From Patescibacteria group bacterium (GTDB lineage Bacteria > Patescibacteriota > Microgenomatia > UBA1406), in NCBI GenBank assembly GCA_041665145.1, contig JBAYJK010000002.1:232339-296338 (forward strand): a stretch of 64,000 bases of DNA. Direction: 5' to 3'. Both the position numbers and the translations under genes were made by a program. Under the pieces are notes generated by a model. That model ran no database searches. It saw only the letters and a list, made by a program, of their open reading frames with translations, and was not told where the DNA came from. This document shows positions 191 through 53,399 of this stretch, one piece after another. How positions within the stretch are numbered: the stretch's first letter is position 1; every line of letters begins with the position of its first letter.

Positions 191-1477
191 TTACCCAAGT
201 ATATCCCCGAGTTCAAGTTCGTTTTTCTTCAACGGTCCAAGCACGGTAATGTTCAGATTCTTCTCAATAAACAAGTCTTTTGCAAGTGAGACTATCTCGT
301 CACGTGTTACTGTATCAATTGAGGAAATTACTTCTTCCGGGGTTTTGTAGGCTCCGAAAAGTAATTGTTCGCCAGCAAAAAAGTTAGCTACGCTATATGA
401 ATCTTCAAGTGATAGTAGCACGTGCCCTTTTATCATTTCCTTCGTTCGGGTTATCTCTTCTTCGGTCACCTTTCCCTGGGCGATACTCTTATGCTCAGCG
501 ACAATTACCGACAATGCCTGCTTGATTTTATGAATATCTGTACTCACGCCTGCCTGGGTGGAAATGTGCCCCACATCGTCATATTGATCTTTTGACGTGT
601 ATATATAGTAGCATAGACCTCTTTTTTCCCGAACTTCGTTAAATAATCGGGAAGACATACCTCCTCCCAAGAGACGAGAAAGAACGGATAGTATATACCG
701 TCGCTTATCAAAAAACGAGAACGCCCGATAACCGATTACAAAATGAGTTTGTTGCGTTTTTTTATAAACCACGTTAAGAACTGGTTTCTTTTGGTTTTCC
801 GACACCGGTTCGTGTCCCGAAACTTTTCCGCCTGTCCAGTGCGAGAAAATGTCGTGGACCGAATTTACATGCTTCACTTGCTCTACGTCTTTCCCCAGGT
901 TTCCCGCAAGAGCCACAATAGCGTTGTGACTGTGGTAGTATTTTTGAAGCCACCCGACAAAATCGCTTCTTTGCATCGAATTGACAGTTTGAGGCTTACC
1001 AGCAATGTCAAAACCAAGCGGGTTTTTCGGGTATAGTTGCTTCTCGTAGAGCTCGCCCACCTTGCGCTGAGGCTCATCTTCATACATATGTATCTCTTCT
1101 ACAATAACGCCCTTCTCGCGCTGTATTTCATCTTCCTTTAATAGCGGTTGAGTAACAGTCTCATACAATATTTTCCCTGCTTTTAATAAATGTGCTGTGG
1201 GCAGCTTTATCCAAAAACCCGTATATTCACGACTAGTGAATGCATTAGAGACTCCTCCAACACCTTCTATTGCCGAAGCGAGGCTAAAAGGTGTGGGGAA
1301 ACTCGGAATTGATTTTGATGTTGCGTGCTCTAAAAAATGAGATATACCATTGTTCTTTTCATCTTCGTATCGTGAACCAACTTTCACCATCACTAACATC
1401 GTAATTGAGCCGAATGTTTCCGTATTTATACTTATGACAGGTAGACCATTCGTCAGTTTATTGAGCGTGATGTTCAT
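191..1477 (-). CDS. M16-family (insulinase/pitrilysin-like) zinc peptidase
   Basis: 428-aa ORF. The inverted zinc motif HxxEH is present as HFLEH near the N-terminus. The length fits a two-lobed M16 peptidase. The start ATG shares one nt with the leuS stop (TAATG). Confidence 0.88.
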   Translation of the reverse strand: MNITLNKLTNGLPVISINTETFGSITMLVMVKVGSRYEDEKNNGISHFLEHATSKSIPSFPTPFSLASAIEGVGGVSNAFTSREYTGFWIKLPTAHLLKAGKILYETVTQPLLKEDEIQREKGVIVEEIHMYEDEPQRKVGELYEKQLYPKNPLGFDIAGKPQTVNSMQRSDFVGWLQKYYHSHNAIVALAGNLGKDVEQVKHVNSVHDIFSHWTGGKVSGHEPVSENQKKPVLNVVYKKTQQTHFVIGYRAFSFFDKRRYILSVLSRLLGGGMSSRLFNEVREKRGLCYYIYTSKDQYDDVGHISTQAGVSTDIHKIKQALSVIVAEHKSIAQGKVTEEEITRTKEMIKGHVLLSLEDSYSVANFFAGEQLLFGAYKTPEEVISSIDTVTRDEIVSLAKDLFIEKNLNITVLGPLKKNELELGDILG

Positions 1478-4107
1478 TACGATCCCTTTACAATAAAATT
1501 AATAATTTTTCCGGGAACATAGATTGTTTTATAGTTACCTGCTACATGTTTTTGTATACTCTCTTGCGCTAAAGCCGCTTGTATTATTGATTTCTCAGTT
1601 ATATCCATAGACTTGGTAACAACCGTACCGCGAAACTTTCCATTAATCTGTACCGCAACTGTAACGTCTGACTTGTTTATCTGTTTAGCGTCAGGAACCG
1701 GGAAGGTTGATAGATGGACACTTCCTGCCATTTTAAGGGTATTGCGCCAGAGATCTTCAGCAATAAATGGGGCAAACGGTGCCAGCAGTTGGACAAAAAC
1801 TGTCGCATGCTGTTTCTGGATCTTTCCACCAAGCTCCCAGACATTCAAAAGTTTCATGAGCGTAGCAATTGCAGTATTAAATTTAACGTTCGTTATATCA
1901 CTCTCAATTTTCGATATCGACATTTGAAGCTCTGAAACAACCTTTACATCCTCATCATCAACAGCATTTGCTATCTTAGCAGGATTATTGAATATCTGAT
2001 AAATTCGCCTCAGAAATCGCGCTGACCCTTGAAGAGCTTGGGTTGACCAGGCAATCTCCATATTGAATGGAGCCATGAACATCTCATAGACCCTGAGTGT
2101 GTCAGCACCATACTCTTTAACAACATCATCAGGGTTAATTACGTTGCCAAGCGATTTGCTCATCTTGCGGTGGTCTGTTGCAAGAACCATACCTACATTG
2201 CGCAGTCTCAAAAAGGGCTCCCTGAAGCCTAAAATACCCAAGTCATTGAGAACATGCACCCAAAACCGCGCATAAAGTAAATGAAGCACAGCATGCTCGG
2301 CACCACCCAGATACCAGTCGACCGGCAACATTTCTGCACCCTTCAATTCGGCTTTCCACTTCTCAACAAGATCACCGGGCGAGGCAACCTCGCCCCTACG
2401 TACTTGCCCGTTTTGTGCAAATTTCAAAAAATACCAACACGACCCTGCCCAGTTGGGCATCGTATCAGTTTCACGACGAGCAGTTGAACCGCATGCCGGG
2501 CATGGGGTCTCGAGCCATTTTTCACCCGCTTGCACGAGGGGCGACTCTCCATTTTCTGTCGGCTCATAGTGACTCATGTATGGCAGCTCCAGTGGCAGTG
2601 TCCCTTCATTGATCGGGTACCAGCCATAGCTCTTCTCTAGAGTACTTTGATCTAGTTTGGTAGTATTTTGATACTTTTTTTGAAAGCTTTTTCCCTCAGC
2701 TGTTGTGAACCACGAATTCTTTTCCGTGGCACACTTTTCGCAATAAACGAGTGGAATCGGTTCTCCCCAATAACGTTGTCGGGAAAAAATCCAATCGCGC
2801 AAATGAAAACTGACCACCCGTTTACCCCAACCCCTTGCTTCCAAGTGATCCATCATTTTGTCTTTAGCTTTCATGATGTCAAGACCGTCGAGAAAATCGG
2901 AATTAATCATAATTCCGGATTCTTCCTGAACTTGTCTGATATCAGTTATTGGAGACGTGTCGGCATCTGACCCCTTAACCACACGCATCACCTCTATCCC
3001 GAATTCTTGCGCAAACTCAAAATCTCGTCGGTCGTGCCCGGGAACACCAACAACTGCTCCCGTTCCGAAATCTCCGAGCACGAAATCTGAAATCCATATG
3101 GGAAGCGGTTTTCCGTTAAGATTATTAACCGCGTAGAAACCCGAAAAAACACCTGTTTTCTTACGACCTTCGGCAATTCTGTCAAGGTCGGTTTTTGATA
3201 GGGCTTTCTGAATATATAAGCTCACTTTTTTATGGATTGCTTCCGTTGTTACCAGTTTTTTTTCAACCACCTTTTTAGCAAAGGGATGTTCGGGTGCTAA
3301 TACGATAAAAGTAGCACCGAAGTTGGTGTCTGGCCTTGTGGTGAAGCACGTGATCTTATCGTCGCTTCCGCGCACCTCATATGCAATATTAATTCCTTCT
3401 TTCTTACCTATCCAATTGCGCTGCATTTCCACTATTCCGTTGGGCCATTGCAGATCTTTAAGGCTATCTAACAAGCTGTTTGCATATGTGGTTATTTTGA
3501 ATATCCATTGCGGAAGATCTCGCTTTGAGATAGTTGAACCGCAACGCTCATGAGTACCATTCGGAAGCACTTCCTCTTCCGCGAGTCCGGTTTTGCAAGT
3601 TGGGCAGAAGTAAACCGAGATCTCTTTTTTAAACAGAAGTCCCAGCTTAAAGAATAATAAGAATAACTCTTGAGTTTTGCCATAGTAGGCCGGATCGGTC
3701 GTTGCAAATTCCTTCTCCCAATCGTAAGACAAACCGAGCATTTGCATTTGACGCTTGAAATTGGCAATATTTGCCGGAACCATATCCATCGGATTCTTTT
3801 TAGCCTTAATTGCTGCGTTTTCTGCCGGCAAGCCAAAGGCATCCCATCCCATCGGATGTAATACAGAGAAACCTTTCATGCGAAAATAGCGTGCCAACAC
3901 ATCTGTGCCCGTATAAATCCGAACGTGGCCTACATGCAGACCAGCGCCAGACGGATAGGGAAACATGGATAAACAGTACATCTTATTCTTATTATTCTTC
4001 AAGTCTAAAGCAGAAGGTCTAAGGTCTGAGGTTTTGTATACACCGTCTTTTTCCCACTGTTCTATCAGCTTCGACTCAAACTCTTGGGGAATATATTTAT
4101 GTTCCAT
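1477..4107 (-). CDS. leuS: leucyl-tRNA synthetase
   Basis: 876-aa ORF with the class I signatures HVGH (HIGH motif) and KMSKS. It has a long CP1/editing insertion and the typical LeuRS N-terminus (PYPSGxLHVGH). Confidence 0.97.
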   Translation of the reverse strand: MEHKYIPQEFESKLIEQWEKDGVYKTSDLRPSALDLKNNKNKMYCLSMFPYPSGAGLHVGHVRIYTGTDVLARYFRMKGFSVLHPMGWDAFGLPAENAAIKAKKNPMDMVPANIANFKRQMQMLGLSYDWEKEFATTDPAYYGKTQELFLLFFKLGLLFKKEISVYFCPTCKTGLAEEEVLPNGTHERCGSTISKRDLPQWIFKITTYANSLLDSLKDLQWPNGIVEMQRNWIGKKEGINIAYEVRGSDDKITCFTTRPDTNFGATFIVLAPEHPFAKKVVEKKLVTTEAIHKKVSLYIQKALSKTDLDRIAEGRKKTGVFSGFYAVNNLNGKPLPIWISDFVLGDFGTGAVVGVPGHDRRDFEFAQEFGIEVMRVVKGSDADTSPITDIRQVQEESGIMINSDFLDGLDIMKAKDKMMDHLEARGWGKRVVSFHLRDWIFSRQRYWGEPIPLVYCEKCATEKNSWFTTAEGKSFQKKYQNTTKLDQSTLEKSYGWYPINEGTLPLELPYMSHYEPTENGESPLVQAGEKWLETPCPACGSTARRETDTMPNWAGSCWYFLKFAQNGQVRRGEVASPGDLVEKWKAELKGAEMLPVDWYLGGAEHAVLHLLYARFWVHVLNDLGILGFREPFLRLRNVGMVLATDHRKMSKSLGNVINPDDVVKEYGADTLRVYEMFMAPFNMEIAWSTQALQGSARFLRRIYQIFNNPAKIANAVDDEDVKVVSELQMSISKIESDITNVKFNTAIATLMKLLNVWELGGKIQKQHATVFVQLLAPFAPFIAEDLWRNTLKMAGSVHLSTFPVPDAKQINKSDVTVAVQINGKFRGTVVTKSMDITEKSIIQAALAQESIQKHVAGNYKTIYVPGKIINFIVKGS

Positions 4108-4450: not shown

Positions 4451-5474
4451 GCATATCACCCCCTTTCTTTGTATGTTTTTTATGTCTCATAAGTCTTATA
4501 AGACTTATGAGACTAACAAGACTAATAAGTCCCATAAGACCCATGAGTCTTATGGGAAAAGCCCAGAATTCAGTAGTTGCGTAAATCTTCTTATCGGCAA
4601 ATTCGAATGTCATGGCAGCTGAGACTGTATACTTACCGAAAAACCAGCCTTTGAATACAGTGCTTACCGGAATCTTGCACCGCTTGCATTCCGGAAATTC
4701 CTCTTGAACCATTAACCTTTGTGAGTTTTTGAGCACATTTGCAGGAAACAGTTTTTTCGTTTCACTTTTGCCTAATGACGAAACGAGTTTAAGAGTTACT
4801 TGTGGTGTTACCATAAATTGTCCGGTGTTGGCAATTTTAACAACCACCGGGACTTCATCATTGCTCTCGACGATGGTGAATGTTTTTCCAAATAGCGATA
4901 ACGAATATCTCGGTATAACTTGCAATTGAGCTATTTTACCTTCGATCGGCATATTTCCTGAGTTAGTAACGCTCACTAAAATATTTGCCCCGATATATGA
5001 CCTCCCCAACCCCGCTGTAGTTTGAGTAACCGGCGGATCTGCCACAAAAAACAACGTATAGTAATAGTCGCCCTCGGGAGCATTTTCCACCGCCCTGATT
5101 TTAAGCAGCGCTTGTGTTTTCTCACGGGATTTGAGTACAAATTTATCTCCCAACCCCATTTGGCTGTTCTCCAAAGAGAATCTGAGCGGTCCTTCCGCTT
5201 TATCCTTAAAAACTCTTCCTCCCTGGTCGTCTGATGGTTCAAAAGAAAGAATGCTTGTGGAAAACACCATAGTATCACCGTTGTTTTTCAAATCAATAGC
5301 CTGCAGCAACGATTTACCCGGCTTAATAACTATCTCTACCTGTGGTGGATAGACGGATACATGGAGTTTTTCGGCATTGGCAGTGGTAGATAGTTGATGG
5401 TAGATAGTTAATAGTAAAATACCCACACAAACGAGCCTCATAACTCTGATTTGTGCGGATCTATTCAATAACAT
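4440..5474 (-). CDS. secreted surface protein with C-terminal membrane anchor, DUF916/DUF3324-like architecture
   Basis: 344 aa. It has an N-terminal signal peptide (…LSTTANA), beta-rich domains and a C-terminal TM followed by a basic tail (RLMRHKKHTKK). Length and layout match ORF 11877..12905. The family call rests on pattern resemblance only. Confidence 0.5.
   Translation of the reverse strand: MLLNRSAQIRVMRLVCVGILLLTIYHQLSTTANAEKLHVSVYPPQVEIVIKPGKSLLQAIDLKNNGDTMVFSTSILSFEPSDDQGGRVFKDKAEGPLRFSLENSQMGLGDKFVLKSREKTQALLKIRAVENAPEGDYYYTLFFVADPPVTQTTAGLGRSYIGANILVSVTNSGNMPIEGKIAQLQVIPRYSLSLFGKTFTIVESNDEVPVVVKIANTGQFMVTPQVTLKLVSSLGKSETKKLFPANVLKNSQRLMVQEEFPECKRCKIPVSTVFKGWFFGKYTVSAAMTFEFADKKIYATTEFWAFPIRLMGLMGLISLVSLISLIRLMRHKKHTKKGGDMHGK
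4484..4513. repeat. 30-nt perfect palindrome inside the C-terminal anchor codons of ORF 4440..5474
   Basis: gtctcataagtcttataagacttatgagac equals its own reverse complement. A second hairpin, cccataagac-ccatga-gtcttatggg, lies about 20 nt further on. Confidence 0.9.
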
Positions 5475-33472: not shown

Positions 33473-33500
33473 GTAAGGGCGCGGCGTGACGCGCCCGTCT
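33473..33500. repeat. REP-like hairpin R1 just after the LamG stop
   Basis: GTAA-GGGCGCG-gcgtga-CGCGCCC-GTCT, a 7-bp GC stem with a 6-nt loop. It lies 4 nt after the stop at 33469 and upstream of the rayT-like ATG at 33510. Confidence 0.6.
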
Positions 33501-33509
33501 TGCACAAAT

Positions 33510-34163
33510 ATGCATAACCGTCAATCAATCAGATTGAAAAATTACGATTATTCGCAATCAGGTTTGTATTTTATAACCATATGCACACAAAACAGAGAAA
33601 ATATATTTGGCAACATTGTAGGGGCGGACCCACGTGTCCGCCCGATATCAAACCCATGTGTCCGCCCAATATTAAAACCTGTCCGCCCAACATCAAATGC
33701 ACACATCGACACAATACGTATGACATTAAATAAATACGGGAATATTGTTGAAAAATGGTTAAATAAAATTCCTCATAAATTCCATGTTGTTATGGATAAA
33801 TGCCAAATTATGCCCAATCATATTCATATGATAATCAATATTATTTCTGACGATGGTTTGATCCAGAATTTATATTCAGGGCAGACACAAGGGTCTGCCC
33901 CTACATCAACGCCACCCACAACAATCGGCACAATAATCCAATGGTTCAAAACCATGGTAACGAATGAATATATCCAAAATGTACATAATAAGAATTGGAA
34001 ACCATTTGAAGGACGGTTGTTTCAACGCAATTATTATGAACACATTATCCGTTCTGATAATGATTTATGCAAAACACGCGAATACATCATGAATAATCCT
34101 GCCTTATGGTACCGTGATCGAAATAATCCAGAAAAAACAAACAACAATATTCTGTTACAATAA
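33510..34163 (+). CDS. IS200/IS605-family Y1 HUH transposase-like protein, RayT (REP-associated tyrosine transposase) type
   Basis: N-terminus RLKNYDYSQSGLYFITICTQNRENIFG, the HUH motif as HIHMI, and a catalytic-Tyr region QRNYYEHIIRSDNDL…YIMNNPALW. I prefer the ATG at 33510 to the track's GTG at 33486. No terminal inverted repeats or tnpB partner were seen. Confidence 0.8.
   Translation: MHNRQSIRLKNYDYSQSGLYFITICTQNRENIFGNIVGADPRVRPISNPCVRPILKPVRPTSNAHIDTIRMTLNKYGNIVEKWLNKIPHKFHVVMDKCQIMPNHIHMIINIISDDGLIQNLYSGQTQGSAPTSTPPTTIGTIIQWFKTMVTNEYIQNVHNKNWKPFEGRLFQRNYYEHIIRSDNDLCKTREYIMNNPALWYRDRNNPEKTNNNILLQ
33618..33690 (+). repeat. REP-like hairpin R2 plus two extra tandem half-sites, translated inside rayT
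   Basis: GTAG-GGGCGGAC-ccacgt-GTCCGCCC (33618-33643). GTGTCCGCCC recurs at 33658-33667 and GTCCGCCC at 33681-33688, about 23 nt apart. The region encodes VGADPRVRPISNPCVRPILKPVRP. Confidence 0.7.
33879..33904 (-). repeat. REP-like hairpin R3 translated inside rayT
   Basis: GGGCAGAC-acaagg-GTCTGCCC-CTAC, which puts GTAG on the minus strand. It encodes GQTQGSAPT. Confidence 0.65.
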
Positions 34164-41506: not shown

Positions 41507-42812
41507 GAGCAACAGCAAAAGCCCCTTCTTTCATGTTTATTTTGAGGGTTTTTGATTTGTTCCATACCGCCTCAAACGCCAGTTGGAGTTGTCTTTCGAG
41601 CTTATCATTCACTTCTTTCTCGCTCCACCAATAACCGGCAAGACCCTGCACCCATTCAAAGTATGAAACAGTCACTCCCCCGCTGTTTGCCAGAATATCG
41701 GGGACGACAATAATTCCCATTTTATCGAGAATCGGATATGCGTCTTCTGCAATAGGACCGTTTGCCATTTCGATAATAATTTTCGCTTTGATTTTTCCGG
41801 CGTTTTCAGCAGTTATGACGTTCTCAAGCGCGGCAGGCACCAATATGTCTACCGGAAGTTCCAAAAGTTCTTCCTGACTAACTGTCCTCCCGTATTTGAT
41901 GTCGCAGACGGTGCCCTTGCAATAACACCCGGCAACACTTCCTTTTTTCTTTTTACAATCAAGTGTTGAGGCAACGCTCAGACCTTCTTTAACATAGACA
42001 CCTCCCTTGGAGTCAGATACGGCAACTACGGAAAAACCTTCTTCTTCGGCAATTTTGGCAAAATAGTAGCCGACATTACCGAATCCCTGGACCGCAATCG
42101 ATGGCGATTGCGGAATCTCGAATCTCGAATCTCGAATCTCGAAATTTCCTTTTTTTTGGGATTTTGTATTTGTTTCGGATTTCGGATTTCGGATTTCGGA
42201 TTTTAACTTTGAAAGTAACGCTTTCAAGACCATTACGCCGCCGCGTCCGGTTGCTTCGGTTCTTCCCAAGGATCCACCAAGCGCCACCGGCTTACCGGTG
42301 AATGTAGCGGGACTTTTTGCTCCCACGGCTTTTTCGTATTCATCGAGCATCCACAGCATTATCTGACCGTTGGTATTTACATCCGGTGCCGGGACATCCG
42401 TCCACGGTCCTATATATGAAGCGATTGCCCGTCCATAGGTGCGGGACAGAGATTCCAATTCTTCAACCGTCAATTCTTTGGGGTCAACAATAATCCCGCC
42501 TTTAGCACCTCCATAGGGCAATCCAGCAACTGCGCATTTTAAGCTCATGAGTGTGGAAAGCGCCATCACCTCTTCACGGCTTACATTCTGATGAAATCGA
42601 ATTCCACCTTTGTACGGTCCGAGCGTATTGCTATGTTGGCTTCGAAATCCTTGAAACGTTTTGATTGTGCCGTTTTTCATCTTAACGGGAAGCTTTACCT
42701 CAATAACCCGGTCAGGCTGCACGAGTTTTTCGGTAAGATCTTCCGCAAGACCGATTTTTTTGGCAGTTTTTCTAATAAGACCCTGAGCCGTTTCAAGCAT
42801 TTGATTGGACAT
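41481..42812 (-). CDS. gdh: glutamate dehydrogenase with ~27-aa in-frame insertion
   Basis: Catalytic region PYGGAKGGIIVDP and the Rossmann motif QGFGNVG. The insertion KSEIRNPKSETNTKSQKKGNFEIRDSRFEIPQS lies immediately N-terminal to QGFGNVG. Confidence 0.93.
   Translation of the reverse strand: MSNQMLETAQGLIRKTAKKIGLAEDLTEKLVQPDRVIEVKLPVKMKNGTIKTFQGFRSQHSNTLGPYKGGIRFHQNVSREEVMALSTLMSLKCAVAGLPYGGAKGGIIVDPKELTVEELESLSRTYGRAIASYIGPWTDVPAPDVNTNGQIMLWMLDEYEKAVGAKSPATFTGKPVALGGSLGRTEATGRGGVMVLKALLSKLKSEIRNPKSETNTKSQKKGNFEIRDSRFEIPQSPSIAVQGFGNVGYYFAKIAEEEGFSVVAVSDSKGGVYVKEGLSVASTLDCKKKKGSVAGCYCKGTVCDIKYGRTVSQEELLELPVDILVPAALENVITAENAGKIKAKIIIEMANGPIAEDAYPILDKMGIIVVPDILANSGGVTVSYFEWVQGLAGYWWSEKEVNDKLERQLQLAFEAVWNKSKTLKINMKEGAFAVALTRIAGLQ
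42113..42210 (-). repeat. ~98-nt imperfect-palindromic element inserted in frame in gdh
   Basis: 4x GAATCTC (42113-42140), a 32-nt spacer, then 4x TTTCGGA (42173-42200) and ttttaacttt. It is homologous along its whole length to 43251-43352 in trxB. Confidence 0.85.
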
Positions 42813-42960: not shown

Positions 42961-43990
42961 CATCTAAATATTTCTCAATTTCTAATTCTGCTGCAACTCC
43001 CATTCCTGCAGCTGTCGCTGCTTGCCGGTAGACATGATCAACGCAGTCTCCTGCAGCAAATATTCCATCTACCGAGGTCGCATACTGAAACTTTTTGTCA
43101 AATTTTTCCCGTGATACACCCTCCGGTAATTCAAATGCAACCCTGGCGCCTGTATATATGTATTGCTTCGGATCAAGAAGCACACCCGAGCCCTCAAGAA
43201 ATTTAGTTGCCGGCGTATGACCAATAGCCACAAATACTCCGTCCAAGGGTAAATCTCGAAGCTCGAAGCTCGAATTTCGAAGTTGTTTTAGATCTTCGGA
43301 TTTTAGTGCTTGTTTCGGATTTCGGTTTTCGGATTTCGGAATTTTTAACTTTATTCCCGTTACTTTCTCTTCTCCGACTATTTCCAAAACCTCAGCGTTA
43401 AGAATAACTTCTATCTTCGGATGTTTTAATACTCTCTCCTGCATAATTTTTGATGCCCGAAAACTGTCCCTTCGATGAATTACATAGACTTTTGTCGCAA
43501 AACGTGTGAGTACCAATGCATCCTCCATGGCGGAATCGCCACCACCCAGAACCGCGACCACTTTATTTCTGAAGAAAAATCCATCGCACGTCGCACATGC
43601 CGAGACTCCTTTGCCTCGAAGTTTCTGCTCGGACGGTAACCCGAGCCATCGGGCATCTGCACCTGTCGCAACCAAAATAACCCGTGCAGAATACATCGTA
43701 CCACTGCTTACTATAACATTTTTGGCTCTTTTGTCTGACTCAATCTTTTGTACAGAATCGGAAATAAACCGCGTTCCAAATCGCTCTGCCTGTAATTTCA
43801 TTTCCTGGACAAGCTCAGGTCCAAGTATCCCTTTCGAGAAACCCGGATAGTTTTCTACATCTGAAGTAAGTGTTAATTGCCCTCCAGGAACAGAGCCTTC
43901 AATAACTAACGGTTTTAAATTTGCGCGGGCTGCATATGTTGCTGCCGCAAGTCCTGCCGGTCCTCCGCCGATGATGATAAGGTTTTCCAT
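42938..43990 (-). CDS. trxB: thioredoxin-disulfide reductase with ~22-aa in-frame insertion
   Basis: GGGPAG FAD motif, redox-active CATC, the GGGDSA NADPH motif and GVFVAIGHTP. The insertion PKSENRNPKQALKSEDLKQLRNSSFE lies between VTGIKLK and LPLDGVFVAIGH. Confidence 0.95.
   Translation of the reverse strand: MENLIIIGGGPAGLAAATYAARANLKPLVIEGSVPGGQLTLTSDVENYPGFSKGILGPELVQEMKLQAERFGTRFISDSVQKIESDKRAKNVIVSSGTMYSARVILVATGADARWLGLPSEQKLRGKGVSACATCDGFFFRNKVVAVLGGGDSAMEDALVLTRFATKVYVIHRRDSFRASKIMQERVLKHPKIEVILNAEVLEIVGEEKVTGIKLKIPKSENRNPKQALKSEDLKQLRNSSFELRDLPLDGVFVAIGHTPATKFLEGSGVLLDPKQYIYTGARVAFELPEGVSREKFDKKFQYATSVDGIFAAGDCVDHVYRQAATAAGMGVAAELEIEKYLDEVESRKV
43251..43352 (-). repeat. ~100-nt imperfect-palindromic element inserted in frame in trxB
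   Basis: aatctcgaagctcgaagctcgaatttcgaag … TTTCGGA/TTTCGGT/TTTCGGA/TTTCGGA (43313-43340) … tttttaacttt. It has the same orientation and the same end sequences as the gdh element. Confidence 0.85.
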
Positions 43991-46190: not shown

Positions 46191-46266
46191 ATTTAAGCTT
46201 AAATATTAAAGCTTAAAGATTAATTGAAGCCTAAACCTTAAAGCTTGAAGTTTCCTTGTTGCTTTG
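46191..46266. terminator. AAGCTT-word palindromic spacer between convergent rho and the SpoU gene
   Basis: tttaagcttaaa (46193-46204) is a perfect 12-nt palindrome. Further TTAAAGCTT words follow, with AAGCTT cores at 46196, 46210 and 46242. Confidence 0.4.
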
Positions 46267-46839
46267 CTATTTGTCCTCTAAGCTTAGAGTTCTCCGTATT
46301 TCATAGAGTGCTATTCCCGTGGATACAACCACATTGAGGGATTTGTTGATACCGTACATCGGAAGTTCGACAACAATGTCCGCAAGCTCTATCACCTCTT
46401 GCTTGACACCAAAGGTTTCATTGCCGGATATCAATGCGATATTTTGTTGTACGGGCAAGGCATGCCTTGCCCCTACGTTCCCCATTCTCATCCCTAATTC
46501 ATCAATTGAAATCGATTTCTCGTTCTGTTCCAGCACAATAATCGTATAACCTTCGACTTTCAGACTTTTGACAAGTGCCAGAATGTCTTGTTTGTATTCC
46601 CACGGAATATAGTTCACCAGCCCGACCGAGGCACGGACTATTTTCGGATCAGGCGGTACGGGAGTTTGTCCGCAATGATAGACTTTGGTCACCCCCGCCG
46701 CATCGGAAACCCGATACATACCACCCACATTGAATGTGTCGTACACATCGTCAAGAATGAGTATAAAATTACCGTTTTCTTTTGGAGTGCTCGGACTTTT
46801 TTGTATGTCCCCTTTTCTGAGAGATCGTGCAAACGCCAT
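46267..46839 (-). CDS. SpoU/TrmH-family RNA 2'-O-methyltransferase carrying an in-frame REP hairpin
   Basis: Motifs LILDDVYDTFNVGGMYRVSDAAGV and LISGNETFGV…ELPMYGINKSLNVVVSTGIALYE. The insertion reads MGNVGARHALPVQQN. Confidence 0.88.
   Translation of the reverse strand: MAFARSLRKGDIQKSPSTPKENGNFILILDDVYDTFNVGGMYRVSDAAGVTKVYHCGQTPVPPDPKIVRASVGLVNYIPWEYKQDILALVKSLKVEGYTIIVLEQNEKSISIDELGMRMGNVGARHALPVQQNIALISGNETFGVKQEVIELADIVVELPMYGINKSLNVVVSTGIALYEIRRTLSLEDK
46449..46476 (-). repeat. REP-like hairpin R4 inside the SpoU methyltransferase gene
   Basis: GTAC-GGGCAAGGCATGCCTTGCCC-CTAC, with a perfect 20-nt palindrome at 46453-46472. The minus strand reads GTAGGGGCAAGGCATGCCTTGCCCGTAC and encodes VGARHALPV. 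Confidence 0.8.
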
Positions 46840-47401: not shown

Positions 47402-50400
47402 TCACGACTGGTTCTTCGAATCATCCATCTTCATTTCCTGCACCGGGAGCTCTGCTGTTACCGCCGGTTCTTTAGCTGTCGCCGGCAATTCTACATACTC
47501 GATTGCTTTTTCTTCAAGCATTTTCTTGAGTTCTTCCTCTTTCAAGAGGGCTTCACTTACTTCCTGAGCAGCTGCAAGCTTGGCTTTCAAGTACATGGCA
47601 ATGTCCTGAATAGTCATATCGGTCAACATAAAGAACGGAATAATATCGGAGACGGCAGTAAGTCCTTGCGCTTTAATTTCTTCGTTTGCTGACACGAGCT
47701 TGTTCAAGACGTTGGTGAGTATTACCGCATCCCGTTGTACCCAGACAATGCGAGAAGTTATTTCTTTGGTAAATGGTACTTCTCCATTTGTATAGTGTTC
47801 TATCCACATGCGTTTGAGCTCTTCATATTCGTCAATACCCATAGTTTTGGGTGTCGCGATCATTTTTCCAGAATCAAGTATTTTTGACCTCAAATTCACT
47901 CCCTTATCGAGCGGTTTCTTTCCGCGATCGGCCAGCGCAGCCGGTCGAAGTGCTTGTTGCACGAGCTGTTGTGTTTCCTTAACAGTTGTTTTCTCATTAG
48001 TTTTCTCTGTAAGCTTCTCCAGCATTCTTTCAACAGTTTCTTTAGTGGTTTCTGTTGCTTTTACGAGCGTTGAGATTACGTTTGCCGGCTGCTGTGTTGT
48101 GACGACCTGTGGAATTTTTTGTATAACCGCCTGTATAACATCCGCTTTCATTCCCGATGCTTGTGCAATGCTTTCCACAGCCACCTGGTCCACGGCAACG
48201 GCGGCAAGAGCCGATTGTAATGTTTGCACCAGTCCTTCGGGCTTCTGGTGCGTTTCTGCAGCTATGGACTGCAAGGTGGTTACCCCCGCCGCTTCGGTGA
48301 GCGTTGAATTTACTTTTTCAATTACATCCTTCACTATATCTGTTGTTGTGTTTTGAGATGTCGCAATACCGGTAAGAACTTCTTTGGAAAGTGCGCTTTC
48401 CGTTATTTTTTTAACAACTTGGGTAACCGTTTCTTTTTCTATATTGGTCTTCTCGGAAAGCACAGTCAGCATGTCTCGGGGTGTTGTTGTCGCACTGACC
48501 TCTGATAATGTCGTAAGAATACGTGCAACATCCGGTGTCGAGACATGTGTGATCTCAGACACTCTGGACAACAGTTGTTGATCGTTAGAGACACCCGTTG
48601 TCCATAGGTCCAGAATTTTTTGCACGTTGGAAACGGTAGATTTGGTTTCGGTTGAAACTGCGTCTGTCGTATTCATCAGCGACAATTCCTGATGAGATAA
48701 CTGTTGGATTTTTTCCTGGACAGCCTCGGTTGACTTATTGACCAATTGCTTATATTCCTGTGCAGACTGAGTGTTGGATTGCTCAGCCTTAACGATTGTT
48801 GTTTGTGCGCGGGCAATATCTGAAAGCTTTTGAATTTGGATATCCATGCGTTTCAAAATACTTTCGAATTCCTGCCTGTTGATGCCTTGATTTATAACAA
48901 CGGTTTTTGCTGACATGCCTGCAAATGACGAAACGTCAGCGGGCGAAGTAACTTCGCCCCTACTTGTGTTTTCATTGAATTGCGATTCTTGACTCGCGAC
49001 TCGCGACTCGCGACTCTTGGTCTGGACGTCTTCGATTTCCTGTTCGAGTTGCATTGTTTGCTCTTTAACCCCCTCGGCTTGCTGTTCTACATCCACAAAC
49101 TGTTCCTCGACTTTGTTACCCATTGCCTGCTGAACTTCTTCAACCGCCCCCATCTTGTTCTGGATTTCTTGTGCAGCAGAAACCTTCGCCTTCAAATATG
49201 CTGCGATATCCTGCATACTCATATTACCGAGCATGAAGAATGGAATAACATCGGCAACTTCTTGCAATCCTTCGGCACGAACTTCTTCGTTATCGGAAAT
49301 GAGCTTGTTAAGCGTATTGTTTAACGAGACCACATCTTTCTCAACCCAATCTTTACGCGTTTTAATTGTGTCACTGAGTGGTATCTCTCCCTTTTCATAA
49401 TGGTCGGTCCACATCTTCTTAACTTCCTCGTATTCATCTATCGACATTGTCTGTGGCCGAGCGATAAGCTCTGCGGGAGCGCTTACTTTCTGTGTAGCCG
49501 GCTTAGACAGCACTTCTTGTGCCACTTTCTTGACCTGATCGATATTGGTTTTTGTTTGCGATGCAATTCGTTCTGCTACCGCTGTTGTCTGTACATGCTC
49601 GGCAGCTTTTGTAAGAATTGTTGTTGCTTTGTCTGTAGTGATTCCTGCCGTTTGTGCTACCGATTTGATAACCTCCGACTGCTTCGACTCCTCGACCGCT
49701 TTCGGTATTGATTGCAACACTTGTGACGTTTGAGAATCCGAAACATGTGCATTATTGGCAATGTTGTTAACAACCTTCTTGTCACCTACAACGTCGTTTA
49801 CCATGGATTGCGTGATGTTTTTGACCTCGTTCTGGGATATGTTCACGTGTTGTGAAATATTCTGAATATTCGTTACCGTTTGTGCCTTATTCTGGGCAAA
49901 TTGCTGAATCGCCTGACGCACGCTTGTTGCCGTACTTGTTGTCGCATTGAGGAATTGTTGTGCATTCACATCACCCTTAACTGCCCGTTCGGACATTTCG
50001 GTCTTCAGTTTAATAAATTGAGACCGTTCTTCCTTACTTTCAGCTGCCATCGGATTGCGCATCTTTTCCATAAACTCACGCACGTATTCTTTTCGGTCTG
50101 TCTTTGTTTCAAACCGGGCAATATCCGAAAGCTTTTCGATCTGGACATCCATACGCCGAGTAATCTCGGACACATCCATTTGTTTCATATTTTGCATGTT
50201 TTCGATTGCCGATGTGGCACGCATACCTTGTGAGACTGCCTGCTCGTGCGGTATCTGCATTTTCTGTGAGAAGGATTGTTTTGGAATATTCGCAGGTCCT
50301 ATCGGTCCCGGTGTTGGTCCGTGACTCTGTTGTTCCAACATGTTTAAGAGTATGTTTTTCATGGCGTAAATACCTTCGCAACAATAATCTCTGAATATTC

Positions 50401-51475
50401 TCAGAAGCCACCACGGAAGAATCATAACTACCCACAACATAACAAGGGAAATAACGTACTCTGCAAACGTGTCGACATAGTTCGAGGTATTGATCGATCC
50501 GTCAGTTGATGATAACGGAGCACCCTGCGCACCCGGAGCTTGCTGCGGACCACCGTAAAGGATATTGATACTTAATGGATATACGACTTTGTCAGTTGAA
50601 CTTGCCGTAGTGCCGTTCAAAATACGGTAGAAATTAAACCTGAACGGAATTCCTGCTGACCAGATTGCAGTCAATGAACCCAGAAAAAGTGCAAATAACG
50701 GTCCGTAAAAAGCCCATTGAAAGAAAACCCCGATCCAGATCCACCCGGTATTTCTGATAAGCCGAAACGGAATAAGAAGTGCCAAAAACGGAGCGACAAT
50801 AAGCAAAAACCACAGAACAATTTTACGCAGTACAACCACAATTCCCATGACGAAGTAGGTATAAGAAGATACATCGATCAGAAACCAGGATGTTTTCACC
50901 ATTTCTTGCTTCAACGGATCAAAATCCCGATAACCCACAAAGTTTCGATACCCGTCCTCGCTGGTTGCGGCAAAGAAGATGCGGAAGAGTTTATCCGCAT
51001 TCAGCAATTTGATAAAAAATTGCATAAGAATATCCGTTGCCTGCATAAGACCAAGCACAATCCAGTATGAAAATGCGGTGTACACCAGAAGCAGTACAAC
51101 CTTCCAGAGAATCGGTGCGATGTCGACTTTAATTGAAATATCACGCTTTCGGGCAACCAGAACTCCTACACCCATCAGTATGACCGTTAGAAGAATCAGA
51201 AAGAACGTAACACCTGACGAGATAAGCCACACCTGGCGAAAAACTGCATGATTGTCGATGGAGGGATGAGTTAATATCCAATTTACAAATTGACGCGCAC
51301 GCTCTGCTCGCTTCCCGACTTCGGTCGTCACCGGGTCAAAACGCCATGCAGAAACTCCCGGTGCATCGGTGGGCATGGGAGTGATTTGTGCATAGACGTT
51401 ACCGGCACAAGACAGGAGTAACAAAAAGAACAAAATACCACTAAAAATACGTTTCTTCACCATTACTAACATCAT
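47402..51475 (-). CDS. 1357-aa membrane protein: VirB6/TrbL-like polytopic N-domain plus long repetitive hydrophilic C-terminal extension
   Basis: Signal peptide (…GNVYAQ) and about 7 TM helices in the first ~390 aa, with Trp/Phe-rich loops (IRNTGWIWIGVFFQWAFYGPLF). About 950 aa of Gln/Glu/Thr-rich sequence follow, containing a duplicated ~110-aa module. The VirB6/TrbL call is pattern-based only. Confidence 0.45.
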   Translation of the reverse strand: MMLVMVKKRIFSGILFFLLLLSCAGNVYAQITPMPTDAPGVSAWRFDPVTTEVGKRAERARQFVNWILTHPSIDNHAVFRQVWLISSGVTFFLILLTVILMGVGVLVARKRDISIKVDIAPILWKVVLLLVYTAFSYWIVLGLMQATDILMQFFIKLLNADKLFRIFFAATSEDGYRNFVGYRDFDPLKQEMVKTSWFLIDVSSYTYFVMGIVVVLRKIVLWFLLIVAPFLALLIPFRLIRNTGWIWIGVFFQWAFYGPLFALFLGSLTAIWSAGIPFRFNFYRILNGTTASSTDKVVYPLSINILYGGPQQAPGAQGAPLSSTDGSINTSNYVDTFAEYVISLVMLWVVMILPWWLLRIFRDYCCEGIYAMKNILLNMLEQQSHGPTPGPIGPANIPKQSFSQKMQIPHEQAVSQGMRATSAIENMQNMKQMDVSEITRRMDVQIEKLSDIARFETKTDRKEYVREFMEKMRNPMAAESKEERSQFIKLKTEMSERAVKGDVNAQQFLNATTSTATSVRQAIQQFAQNKAQTVTNIQNISQHVNISQNEVKNITQSMVNDVVGDKKVVNNIANNAHVSDSQTSQVLQSIPKAVEESKQSEVIKSVAQTAGITTDKATTILTKAAEHVQTTAVAERIASQTKTNIDQVKKVAQEVLSKPATQKVSAPAELIARPQTMSIDEYEEVKKMWTDHYEKGEIPLSDTIKTRKDWVEKDVVSLNNTLNKLISDNEEVRAEGLQEVADVIPFFMLGNMSMQDIAAYLKAKVSAAQEIQNKMGAVEEVQQAMGNKVEEQFVDVEQQAEGVKEQTMQLEQEIEDVQTKSRESRVASQESQFNENTSRGEVTSPADVSSFAGMSAKTVVINQGINRQEFESILKRMDIQIQKLSDIARAQTTIVKAEQSNTQSAQEYKQLVNKSTEAVQEKIQQLSHQELSLMNTTDAVSTETKSTVSNVQKILDLWTTGVSNDQQLLSRVSEITHVSTPDVARILTTLSEVSATTTPRDMLTVLSEKTNIEKETVTQVVKKITESALSKEVLTGIATSQNTTTDIVKDVIEKVNSTLTEAAGVTTLQSIAAETHQKPEGLVQTLQSALAAVAVDQVAVESIAQASGMKADVIQAVIQKIPQVVTTQQPANVISTLVKATETTKETVERMLEKLTEKTNEKTTVKETQQLVQQALRPAALADRGKKPLDKGVNLRSKILDSGKMIATPKTMGIDEYEELKRMWIEHYTNGEVPFTKEITSRIVWVQRDAVILTNVLNKLVSANEEIKAQGLTAVSDIIPFFMLTDMTIQDIAMYLKAKLAAAQEVSEALLKEEELKKMLEEKAIEYVELPATAKEPAVTAELPVQEMKMDDSKNQS
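48991..49018 (-). repeat. heptamer array GACTCGC x3 + GACTCTT, translated (SRESRVASQES)
   Basis: Perfect tandem copies at 48991-48997, 48998-49004 and 49005-49011. The same word family occurs in argS, at 53418-53440 and at 58143-58199. Confidence 0.85.
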
Positions 51476-51596: not shown

Positions 51597-53399
51597 TTAC
51601 ATTCTTTCGACAGTCCGGATTCCCAAAAGATACAAGCCATTTTTGAGAACTTGTGAGACTGCTTGAGTAAGATTTATACGAAGTTCCATTTGCTCCCCAC
51701 TTAATATGGAATGTTTGTTGTAAAACGTATTAAACGTCTGGGCAAGTTCGTTTAAATATACCGCAACAAAATGAGGGTCATAACTCTTTGTCGCTGTTTC
51801 AACAACTTCAGGAAATTTGGCAAGAGCTTTAAGGATAGCGAGTTCTTCGTTGTTGTATTCGTATGCATGTGTCGCGGGTCTCGCGTCTTGGGTCTCGCGT
51901 CTTGGTTCCTTAGACTCGTGACTCGTGACTCGTGACTCAGGACTCTTTCTTAACACACTCTTACATCGTGCGTAGGTATATTGCAAATACGGACCAGAAT
52001 CTCCGCTCATTGAAACGCTTGAGGTAATATCAAATGCTAAGTATTTAAATGCACTCATTTTAAGAAACGAATACTTGACTGCTGCTAATGCGATCGCATC
52101 AACATCACTTTCTGGTAAAACTGATTTATTCTCCACAATTACCTTGGCAATTGCTTTGTGTGCTTCATCGAGAATCAACTCTGCTGTAACCACCTGACCT
52201 TTTCGTGAAGACATTTTCCCGCTTTTCAAACCGACAAACTCATATGCGTTGTGGTATTGCTTTCCCTTGAACAATTCCGGGTTCAAAAGCTCTTCAACTT
52301 TGAAGGTTACCTCGAAAAAACTTTTTTGCTCTACCGCGACGTTATGAACACACAAATCTATGTGGCCAAAGTCTTTAAACTCCATTTGTGCAAGACCAAG
52401 TTCTTTACCCTCGTACGTCGGCAGCCCTTCACTGTTAAGAAAAACCCTCGTATCGAGTTTATACGGCTCGCCGTTAAAAATAATCGCTCCCTTACTTTTG
52501 ACAAGAATTCCTTTTTTAATAGCTTCTTCGTTTTGTACTTTGGCAACTTCCAATGTTTCGCTTTCAAGATATTCCCGCTCGAAATGACTATCAAGACGAT
52601 CATAAATTTGGTGAAACTTTTCCAAACTCCACTTTACTCCGAGCTTCCACAATTCATGAACCTCTCCTTCCTTTTCCGTATATATCTTCTTGTTAACTTC
52701 GATGATTTCTTTTTTATTTTCCTCACTTTCTTCAAAGGCTTTTGCCCCCTCAACATAACATTCGGATAATAATTTGACACGTGCATCGGGCGAATCAAGA
52801 TTCGCCCCTACAACGTCCCCGTTTCGAATTTCGAATTTCGAATTTCGAATTTTCTTTTGCAACGCCCACACACATTTGGCAACATGCATTCCAACGTCAC
52901 CCTGGTAGTTCGTCCGTATGACTGTGGCTCCCGATGCCTCTAGAAGTCTGGCAATGGACACTCCTAAACAAAAATTTCTCAAATGTCCAATATGCATGAC
53001 TTTAAACGGGTTCGGATGCCCGTATTCGACCATAATTTTCTTATTCTTCAGCTCGGAATTCTGCCCATAGTTATCATTCTGAGCAAGAACCTCCTGTACA
53101 ACCTTGCTGTACGCTTCAGGCTTCAGGAAGAAATTTATGTATCCCGGCTTTGCTACCTCCACTCGAGCTACATGAAGGGTTGAACCCTTCATGCCATTAG
53201 AAAAAGATAGGTTTAGCTTGTCAACAAGAGCTGCAGCGAGTTGCATTGGATTCGTCTTGACGTGACGGGCTAAAATCATGGCAATATTCGTCGAATAATC
53301 TCCGTGAGCAACTTCAGGAGACACAAAGACCTCTATTAAAGAATGAAATTCTGCATCAACAACCTGTTTTAATAGATCAATTATCTGCTGTTTGAACAT
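51597..53399 (-). CDS. argS: arginyl-tRNA synthetase with three in-frame repeat insertions
   Basis: 600 aa with the HIGH motif as MHIGH and the KMSKS-equivalent GKMSSRKG. The N-terminal Arg_tRNA_synt_N-like region and a C-terminal DALR-like anticodon-binding region ending in M are present. Confidence 0.94.
   Translation of the reverse strand: MFKQQIIDLLKQVVDAEFHSLIEVFVSPEVAHGDYSTNIAMILARHVKTNPMQLAAALVDKLNLSFSNGMKGSTLHVARVEVAKPGYINFFLKPEAYSKVVQEVLAQNDNYGQNSELKNKKIMVEYGHPNPFKVMHIGHLRNFCLGVSIARLLEASGATVIRTNYQGDVGMHVAKCVWALQKKIRNSKFEIRNGDVVGANLDSPDARVKLLSECYVEGAKAFEESEENKKEIIEVNKKIYTEKEGEVHELWKLGVKWSLEKFHQIYDRLDSHFEREYLESETLEVAKVQNEEAIKKGILVKSKGAIIFNGEPYKLDTRVFLNSEGLPTYEGKELGLAQMEFKDFGHIDLCVHNVAVEQKSFFEVTFKVEELLNPELFKGKQYHNAYEFVGLKSGKMSSRKGQVVTAELILDEAHKAIAKVIVENKSVLPESDVDAIALAAVKYSFLKMSAFKYLAFDITSSVSMSGDSGPYLQYTYARCKSVLRKSPESRVTSHESKEPRRETQDARPATHAYEYNNEELAILKALAKFPEVVETATKSYDPHFVAVYLNELAQTFNTFYNKHSILSGEQMELRINLTQAVSQVLKNGLYLLGIRTVERM
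51877..51946 (-). repeat. tandem arrays inside argS: 14-mer x2 + heptamer x5
   Basis: GTCTCGCGTCTTGG at 51877-51890 and 51891-51904. GACTCGT x3 (51912-51932) is followed by GACTCAG and GACTCTT. The region encodes KSPESRVTSHESKEPRRETQDARP. Confidence 0.85.
52788..52811 (-). repeat. REP-like hairpin R5 inside argS
   Basis: GGGCGAATC-aa-GATTCGCCC-CTAC. The minus strand reads GTAGGGGCGAATCTTGATTCGCCC and encodes VGANLDSP. Confidence 0.8.
52822..52849 (-). repeat. heptamer array TTTCGAA x4 inside argS
   Basis: Four perfect copies, one substitution away from the TTTCGGA arrays in gdh and trxB. It encodes IRNSKFEIRN and lies 10 nt from REP R5. Confidence 0.85.

Follow-up and report, generated by a model that had tools for sequence, protein, structure and literature searches.

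The SpoU/TrmH-family gene and its in-frame hairpin

The stretch analyzed here, hereafter referred to as the window, comprises 64,000 nt of the Patescibacteria group bacterium contig JBAYJK010000002.1 (positions 232,339 to 296,338), and its minus strand harbors, at 46267..46839, an open reading frame (ORF) of 190 aa which encodes a SpoU/TrmH-family (SPOUT) RNA 2'-O-methyltransferase. This assignment is based on a match to the Pfam family SpoU_methylase (PF00588; E 7.5e-29, 101 bits), an AlphaFold2 model, and an alignment of orthologs (A1), and the relatives of the protein in the PDB are TrmH and RlmB. Located within this gene is a hairpin (46449..46476, minus strand) of the GTAG-tagged repetitive extragenic palindrome (REP) type, which very probably represents a copy of the REP family belonging to a tyrosine HuH transposase of the RAYT (REP-associated tyrosine transposase), or TnpA_REP, subclass 2.4 type, encoded 12.8 kb away.

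The plus strand reads GTAC GGGCAAGGCATGCCTTGCCC CTAC at 46449-46476, where, as claimed in an original prediction made from the sequence alone, GGGCAAGGCATGCCTTGCCC (46453-46472) constitutes a perfect 20-nt palindrome; inclusive of its flanks, the site forms a 28-nt palindrome in which 13 of 14 positions pair and the overlapping 16-nt arms are 94% complementary. On the coding strand, the element, which resembles the "double-foot" type, reads 5'-GTAG GGGCAAGGCA TGCCTTGCCC GTAC-3', and the minus-strand codons GTA GGG GCA AGG CAT GCC TTG CCC GTA specify residues V122-G-A-R-H-A-L-P-V130, which is precisely the peptide, VGARHALPV, that the palindrome had been proposed to add. The GTAG foot (46476-46473, minus strand), which conforms to the 5' GT[AG]G described for such elements, abuts GGGC on its 5' side, and the perfect, GC-rich stem, GGGCAAGG(CA)/(TG)CCTTGCCC, is 8 to 10 bp in length with three G-C pairs at its bottom. 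The GGGC...GCCC stem bottom is the same as that of 133 hairpins from RAYT loci of other genomes. The anatomy of the family is thus present at this site, namely, a GTAG foot, a GGG/CCC stem bottom, a stem of 8 to 10 bp, and a short loop. As single-stranded DNA, the site is predicted to fold at -11.1 kcal/mol (z -3.9), a value which was matched by none of 200 shuffled sequences.

The SpoU ORF is not interrupted by the hairpin, in agreement with the claim that the element is translated: SpoU_methylase motifs 1 to 3 are intact, and among the residues found to be invariant in A1 (R43, D46, E104, G139, E141, N165, S167, and N169), the last five form SPOUT motifs which lie downstream of the hairpin and remain in frame. 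One public gene call (P0002) adopts a later start codon, resulting in a product of 153 aa. Library artifacts can create perfect palindromes, and a chimeric join or a palindromic read-through was, therefore, considered as the origin of the site. Such an artifact is almost certainly not the explanation, as the same sequence is present in two separately deposited assemblies (ENA ERZ27249449 and JGI 3300037810), the frame and downstream motifs are intact, and sibling copies occur in four other genes. The two contigs differ at one of 21,419 positions, which is located outside the hairpin; the absence of strain polymorphism in the hairpin between these near-identical assemblies is uninformative with regard to mobility.

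Comparison with SpoU orthologs

The segment in question is longer in the window than in most orthologs, with a spacing between the LEQ and GNETF motifs of 41 residues versus 28 residues in 35 of 54 orthologs (+13 aa), and the hairpin-encoded peptide is missing from 52 of the 54. The nearest ortholog for which DNA is available (L001; approximately 80% nucleotide identity) lacks 21 nt, corresponding to the 5' arm and center of the palindrome, and consequently does not represent the case, envisaged as a refutation of the original prediction, of an ortholog with the same residues but no palindrome. The closest SpoU protein (P0001; 81% amino acid identity) is 5 aa shorter and reads MRA-KHALPLQQN where the window reads MRMGNVGARHALPVQQN; its peptide MRA-KHALPL can be obtained from the window sequence by removing 15 nt (AATGGGGAACGTAGG) and making two point changes. 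Judging from this alignment, P0001 probably still carries the palindrome, minus the sense-strand foot. A metagenome scan for further SpoU relatives returned matches of at most 57% identity only. The expectation that ortholog alignment would reveal an insertion of 9 to 11 aa was, therefore, upheld with respect to the lengthened loop, but not with respect to a clean net size within that range.

The AlphaFold2 model of the SpoU protein (pLDDT [predicted local distance difference test] 89.1; pTM [predicted template modeling score] 0.86) places the hairpin-encoded residues in a loop which joins helix 112-120 to strand 133-138, the latter leading into SPOUT motif 2. Residues 121 to 130 constitute the sole low-confidence segment of the fold (mean pLDDT 49, with values of <50 at residues 125 to 128), and the structure of Aquifex aeolicus TrmH (1ZJR) shows a 13-residue gap at this position. 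Read most simply, the model indicates that translation of the hairpin yields a disordered surface loop. The location immediately ahead of the strand entering motif 2, together with the retention of AKHALPL in P0001, might alternatively indicate that the added VGARHALPV contributes to enzyme function, for example, through a contact with the substrate RNA or within the dimer, the palindrome being incidental to it. We consider this highly improbable, given the low confidence of the modeled segment, the absence of the peptide from nearly all orthologs, and the occurrence of "VGA...P" in unrelated proteins purely as a translation of GTAGGGGC...GCCC.

A minority of the SpoU orthologs harbor unrelated extra residues (1 to 17) at the same loop. 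The longest of these, the 17-aa extra IIAGHSTQAAGKPSMLAG of the ortholog at L003:7401-7976 (FWPV01006781.1), is encoded by strongly self-complementary DNA. It was considered as a possible decayed copy of the GTAG element and rejected, as neither the GTAG/GGGC signature nor a match to the covariance model described below was found there. The SpoU loop seems to be a recurrent acceptor of insertions. Repetitive sequence is also present at the 3' end of the gene, where the convergent rho and spoU genes are separated by a 76-nt spacer (46191-46289) built of AAGCTT-centered 14-nt repeats (ATTAAAGCTTAAAG, 2.4 copies); the spoU 3' end itself contains the palindrome CTCTAAGCTTAGAG, and a similar sequence, TTAAAGCTTAAA, occurs in the SpoU loop of L001.

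Membership in a GTAG-tagged hairpin family

Two perfect palindromes of at least 20 nt are present in the window, whereas 300 first-order Markov simulations yielded 0.093 on average, and 24 of them contained one or more; the second is an unrelated AT-rich 30-mer (4484-4513). A perfect 20-nt palindrome is by itself only moderately unlikely, and it is, therefore, the family pattern, rather than the palindrome alone, that makes the case. Allowing one mismatch, the pattern GTAGGGGC-N12-GCCC occurs four times in the window versus an expectation of 0.05, and none of 100 shuffled sequences reached this count. Furthermore, the 64-kb window contains seven GGGC...GCCC hairpins whose stems span 7 bp or more, all of them with a GTAG (or GTAA) foot, versus none in a control set of 746 kb from 81 related candidate phyla radiation (CPR) genomes or loci. 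A full-text literature search for GTAGGGGC returned unrelated primer sequences only.

To assess membership independently of the window, we used a covariance model (R1) which was trained on 133 distinct GTAG-tagged hairpins (alignment A4) from RAYT loci of other genomes and contained no window sequence. As the A4 sequences had been picked for perfect stems, covariation statistics would be circular and were not used as evidence. R1 recovered the SpoU site on the correct strand and over the full model length (46450-46476, minus strand; 21.2 bits, E 1.9e-4), which supports the proposed identity as a GTAG-type REP. Six copies were detected in the window at an E value of at most 2e-4 (43.5, 42.9, 28.7, 21.8, 21.3, and 21.2 bits), and seven significant copies were detected in 72.5 kb of the source genome (the window plus neighboring sequence), whereas nothing in the control set exceeded 15 bits. 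The family is, accordingly, present in the source genome and absent from the sampled relatives, and its copy in the SpoU gene is lineage specific, in frame, and located in a dispensable loop.

It could be argued that the SpoU site is a local, nonmobile palindrome generated by template switching or quasi-palindrome correction in a variable, loop-coding segment, its likeness to REPs being coincidental. The length variability of the loop within the clade, the unrelated extras at the same point in other orthologs, the differences in inner stem among all of the window copies, the restriction of the similarity in P0001 to the half that the 3' arm encodes, and the roughly 8% chance per window of a perfect 20-nt palindrome are all compatible with such an origin. 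Nonetheless, we regard it as very unlikely, since the GTAG foot, the GGGC/GCCC stem bottom, and the next G are common to six other window copies and to the 133 RAYT-associated hairpins, and since a model built without window sequences recognizes the site while no such hairpins occur in 746 kb of relatives.

The RAYT-like gene and its homologs

The gene 12.8 kb from the SpoU hairpin (33507..34163, plus strand; 218 aa; open from 33486) encodes a Y1 HuH transposase of the RAYT/TnpA_REP type, resembling subclass 2.4, so that the nearby rayT-like gene of the original prediction is indeed of this type, judging from Pfam, a below-cutoff NCBIfam match, its motifs, and a profile of its homologs (alignment A3). 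The motifs of subclass 2.4 have been defined as NH[IFV]H, WQ, and YIxNNP (PMC6006769; Quentin, Siguier, Chandler, and Fichant, 2018). The window ORF contains PNHIHMII, FQRNYYEHIIR, and YIMNNP, including both the HuH motif NH[IFV]H and the Tyr/YIxNNP region, and H105, Y176, N197, and P198 are invariant in A3. It scores 28.4 bits against Pfam Y1_Tnp, above the cutoff of 23. No match was obtained in a single-sequence search of the PDB, and it was by means of the A3 profile only that Escherichia coli TnpArep (4ER8) was reached, as the best match (E 1.6e-4, versus 0.19 for IS200-type transposases). By these sequence comparisons, the ORF appears to match most of the features of TnpA_REP subclass 2.4.

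Two canonical REPs are located in frame within rayT. The first, GTAG GGGCGGAC CCACGT GTCCGCCC (33618..33646, plus strand; R1 42.9 bits, E 2.6e-11), encodes VGADPRVRP, and the second, in the opposite orientation (33876..33904, minus strand; R1 43.5 bits, E 1.7e-11), encodes GQTQGSAPT. The latter lies between the HuH (PNHIH) and Tyr (YYEH) motifs, and REPs in frame within tnpA_REP in this interval have been described as unique to subclass 2.4 (PMC6006769); the former is at the other published insertion site, at the end of helix B. A degenerate REP with a GTAA foot and a 7-bp stem (33473..33499, plus strand; R1 9.6 bits, E 0.87) is positioned between the stop codon of a 1747-aa ORF and the rayT start codon, 8 nt upstream of rayT, while no REP was found downstream of the gene. 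As had been claimed, the SpoU hairpin has the GTAG foot and GGGC...GCCC outer consensus in common with these rayT-associated hairpins and differs from them in its inner stem.

At least 7958 homologs of rayT were identified, and hairpin-encoded peptides (VGADPCVRP and G.THGSAPT in A3) recur at fixed sites within them. Across 80 homolog loci from CPR, Chloroflexota, Desulfobacterota, Bacteroidota, Planctomycetota, and other phyla, 174 GTAG/CTAC-tagged GGG...CCC hairpins were found (consensus, GTAG-GGGCNNNN-CYNYGT-NNNNGCCC). The rayT genes themselves contain 80 of these, a further 73 lie no more than 500 bp from the gene, and the remaining 21 are more distant, roughly half of the latter falling in long open frames. 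One such locus, in the "Candidatus Doudnabacteria" metagenome-assembled genome JBAZQX010000019.1 (L084:7815-7972), carries an inverted REP pair (VGADPCVCP... / ...GRTHWSAPT) in frame in the gene for a 1272-aa class I aminoacyl-tRNA synthetase, 2 kb from the RAYT of that genome, which shows that intragenic REPs in aminoacyl-tRNA synthetase genes recur in other CPR lineages. No RAYT homolog was found in the sampled loci of the 81 related CPR genomes.

Dispersed copies and other repeats

In addition to the SpoU site, three copies are dispersed in frame through other genes on the minus strand of the window, namely, in the leucyl-tRNA synthetase (LeuRS) gene (1477..4107), where the REP at 2374..2399 encodes RRGEVASPG (R1 21.3 bits); in the gene for a 1357-aa ORF product (47402..51475), where that at 48938..48963 encodes SRGEVTSPA (21.8 bits); and in the arginyl-tRNA synthetase (ArgRS) gene (51597..53399), where that at 52785..52811 encodes VGANLDSP (28.7 bits, E 7.9e-7). 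The ArgRS copy corresponds to an additional 11 aa relative to the ortholog from L003. An eighth copy (the seventh significant by R1), GTAGGGGCGAACCGAAAGGTTCGCCCC, is situated 8.5 kb past the left end of the window (L162:14610-14638); it lies between genes, 23 nt past the stop codon of ndk, with a 9- to 10-bp stem and a GAAA loop (24.5 bits). Six of the eight copies in 72.5 kb are, therefore, intragenic.

The four dispersed copies in the window, that of SpoU included, have a common stem, GGGC[GA]A[GA][GT], in which each change is compensated on the opposite arm, and all four carry GTAG on the coding (minus) strand. Two sense frames are in use (GTA-GGG-GCx and xGT-AGG-GGC), and the third would read TAG. 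The GC skew of the plus strand is negative over most of the window, which, like the sense-strand bias of the four copies, fits GTAG feet on the lagging-strand template, although with four copies, and confounded as both are with gene orientation, this is a hint at most.

The uniform sense orientation could also point to a host-selected nucleic acid signal, i.e., an mRNA hairpin which pauses ribosomes, stabilizes the transcript, or binds a protein, and thereby regulates SpoU or the convergent rho gene, with REP origin being secondary (exaptation). The SpoU hairpin is the most stable of the set as RNA (-20.3 kcal/mol), and effects on mRNA stability as well as protein binding have been reported for REPs elsewhere (PMC3733652). 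An intrinsic terminator can be ruled out, as there is no T-run past the stem, the sequence after GCCC being GTACAACAAAATATCG (coding strand) or CTACGTTCCCC (plus strand). The site is, moreover, missing from all orthologs with one possible exception, copies reside at unrelated positions in unrelated genes, and, since the four host genes share a strand, insertion with a strand bias would account for the sense orientation equally well. On this evidence, selection by the host as the primary explanation is judged to be distinctly unlikely.

The window also contains tandem arrays of heptanucleotides (coding-strand units TTCGAAA, TCCGAAA, TTCGAGA, and TTCGAGC; perfect arrays of approximately 3.7 to 4.4 copies), located at 126-151, 42113-42143, 42173-42203, 43255-43282, 43313-43340, 48991-49016, 51871-51945, and 52822-52852. 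Perfect period-7 arrays number 6 in 64 kb (0.094/kb), versus 14 in the 746 kb of other CPR loci (0.019/kb) and a density of 0.007/kb in RAYT loci of other phyla; perfect arrays of period 5, 6, or 9 were not found in the window. They are translated in frame within housekeeping genes, as in those for glutamate dehydrogenase (KSEIRNPKSE...FEIRDSRFEI), thioredoxin reductase (KSENRNPK...SSFELRDL), ArgRS (IRNSKFEIRN and SPESRVTSHESKEPRRETQDARP), and likewise in the gene for the 1357-aa ORF product. Two of the arrays are close to GTAG hairpins, at distances of 11 and 19 nt, the ArgRS hairpin being 11 nt from TTTCGAA (4.4 copies). The membrane-associated 1357-aa ORF product (47402-51475, minus strand) is an internal duplication, its relatives being approximately 820 aa in length and its residues ~870 to 1357 realigning to ~330 to 815; its GTAG hairpin (aa 838 to 846) and heptamer array fall in the linker of the two diverged copies. 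The AT-rich 30-nt perfect palindrome, GTCTCATAAGTCTTATAAGACTTATGAGAC (4484-4513), is embedded in period-9/18 repeats of CTCATAAGA in an intergenic region (4475-4557) by an RRM-domain gene upstream of the LeuRS gene; this region includes a second inverted repeat (4530-4557) and is unrelated to the GTAG family.

Proposed origin and retention of the SpoU element

How a copy may have come to reside in the SpoU gene can be modeled on the biochemistry of the TnpA_REP enzymes of E. coli, Stenotrophomonas, and Marinomonas. The hairpin would be extruded on the lagging-strand template, and RAYT-mediated cleavage and joining of single-stranded DNA would bring the element in. Retention would follow because insertions are expected to survive in a gene-dense, reduced genome only if they introduce no stop codon, preserve the frame, and fall in tolerant surface loops; the SpoU protein would simply bear 7 to 13 additional loop residues, for which a host function is not required. 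The near-symmetric feet (GTAG ... xTAC) resemble those of the "double-foot" REP, a form defined by a 5' GT[AG]G and a 3' C[TC]AC which can arise through a central deletion in an inverted REP dimer (PMC6006769), and it is possibly from such a centrally deleted dimer that the SpoU element is derived. The sequences of the window and P0001 further suggest that the ancestral element may have been a true double foot from which one foot was lost in each lineage. In vitro processing of single-stranded REPs by TnpA_REP enzymes, as determined by structure and the GTAG motif, has also been reported (PMC8266576; Corneloup, 2021), and by analogy, mobilization of the SpoU element by the RAYT of the window appears plausible.

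A number of observations weigh against assigning the SpoU site to the family of this particular RAYT. With regard to the element itself, its closest ortholog possesses half of the hairpin-encoded peptide (AKHALPL in P0001, similar to ARHALPV in the window) and is just 5 aa shorter; the element is, therefore, probably older than the split between the two, and the net insertion is not a clean 9 to 11 aa. The 3' foot on the coding strand is GTAC, which fits C[TC]AC at three of four positions, and thus the element is not a strict double foot; comparably imperfect feet (gtaa...ctac) occur at L135:3506-3525. The dispersed copies have loops of 3 to 4 nt, versus 6 nt in canonical REPs, and stems unlike those of the two rayT-internal REPs, so that it is not certain that this RAYT recognizes them. 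Their R1 scores are modest (approximately 21 bits), which in the case of the SpoU site is due to its shortened loop, and, as the LeuRS protein loop which holds the copy is only ~6 aa longer than that of a solved LeuRS (PDB 3ZIU), insertion is not equally clear for every copy.

The transposase raises similar doubts. Its NCBIfam REP_Tyr_transpos score (58.9 bits) is below the equivalog cutoff of 80, the match being split by insertions; the conserved W-Q before the Tyr motif is represented by FQ (LFQRNYYEH), the same F being present in homologs P0110, P0113, P0118, and P0119; the 3' arm and spacer of the REP at 33618 are triplicated (33628-33697; Tandem Repeats Finder period 24, three copies), yielding the peptides PRVRPISN, PCVRPILK, and PVRPTSN; and one public call (P0109) truncates the product to 147 aa, starting downstream of this triplication. 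In view of these features, the window RAYT may be inactive. No polymorphism that would signal movement of any copy in the source genome was observed between the two near-identical assemblies. We nonetheless favor the assignment of the SpoU site to the GTAG-tagged family.

A more far-reaching extension would be that, in this Roizmanbacteria-like lineage, the RAYT-REP system has moved almost wholly into coding sequence and, together with the heptamer arrays, still acts as a recurrent generator of surface-loop insertions in essential proteins of a reduced genome, a scenario which we regard as unlikely. If true, the double-foot palindrome in SpoU would serve the RAYT as a live substrate within a housekeeping gene, linking transposase nicking to the integrity of host genes, and the hosts of such coding-sequence copies would include LeuRS, ArgRS, and a TrmH-like enzyme.

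The assignment has practical consequences for annotation. Gene callers misplace starts or split genes near such hairpins, as exemplified by the calls of 147 aa for rayT and 153 aa for SpoU. In CPR proteins, "VGA...P," "..RGE..SP," "G.T.GSAPT," and similar peptides should be interpreted as translated REPs rather than as lineage-specific functional motifs, and GTAG hairpins may serve to flag loops which tolerate insertion.

Relation to known REP systems

In the literal sense, a REP is located between genes, and the SpoU site lies inside an ORF. Its position does not exclude it from the REP family, because exceptions within genes are on record (PMC3733652; PMC6006769). REPs of the GTAG and CGTC types located in frame inside genes were described in several species, including in tRNA synthetase genes, and the intragenic copies were proposed to be neutral and accommodated in tolerant, flexible loops (PMC3733652; Di Nocera, De Gregorio, and Rocco, 2013). 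The window copies resemble those GTAG REPs in their unpaired GTAG foot, GC-rich stem of 5 to 13 bp, and in-frame position in genes of known proteins, and the hosts listed there likewise include tRNA synthetases along with RNA modification enzymes (pseudouridine synthases); SpoU/TrmH is not named as a host in the main text of that article. The published cases are from Proteobacteria, Verrucomicrobia, and similar groups and are mostly extragenic, whereas the present host is a Roizmanbacteria-like CPR bacterium, assigned to "Candidatus Roizmanbacteria" by the names of homologs, with a predominantly intragenic set.

Rickettsia palindromic elements (RPEs), as summarized in PMC3733652, offer a further parallel in that they too are selfish palindromes which a reduced genome carries in frame within its essential genes, apparently tolerated in surface loops. 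According to the same source, RPE-1 is much longer, and RPE-4 and RPE-6 belong to a CGTC-tagged superfamily without an associated transposase rather than to a GTAG/RAYT system. An RPE or CGTC-tagged repeat was, therefore, ruled out for the SpoU site, the tag of which is GTAG and the length of which is 28 nt (not CGTC and not the 100 to 150 bp of RPE-1).

The subclass 2.4 systems, whose REPs have three G-C pairs at the stem bottom (PMC6006769), are like the present one in this stem start, in a 5' foot with a 3' complement in some elements, which the SpoU site approximates, in the in-frame REPs of tnpA_REP, in the transposase motifs NH[IFV]H and YIxNNP, and in their patchy distribution over many phyla. 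The SpoU element differs from them in its 3' foot (GTAC in place of C[TC]AC) and its loop of at most 4 nt (versus 6 nt in the canonical form), and the window RAYT differs in having FQ for WQ; the CPR, moreover, is not among the phyla named in that survey, and no link between RAYTs and CPR was found in the literature searched.

Similarly, the REPIN-RAYT systems of Pseudomonas and E. coli (PMC3116915, Bertels and Rainey, 2011; PMC2817692, Nunvar, 2010; PMC8266576) pair GTAG hairpins with a Y1 HuH transposase present in a single copy, for which the hairpin together with its GTAG is the recognized single-stranded substrate. Those systems belong to groups 2 and 3 (subclasses 2.2 and 2.5) and comprise hundreds of extragenic copies, usually as inverted doublets which flank the gene, whereas the window copies are singletons and mostly intragenic, and the RAYT has REPs within it rather than around it. 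The SpoU element is, accordingly, a further example of a described phenomenon, namely, selfish GTAG palindromes in frame in essential genes, and not a new type of element or mechanism; the principle has already been published, and what is added is its extension to the CPR as host phylum, SpoU as host gene, and a high intragenic fraction.

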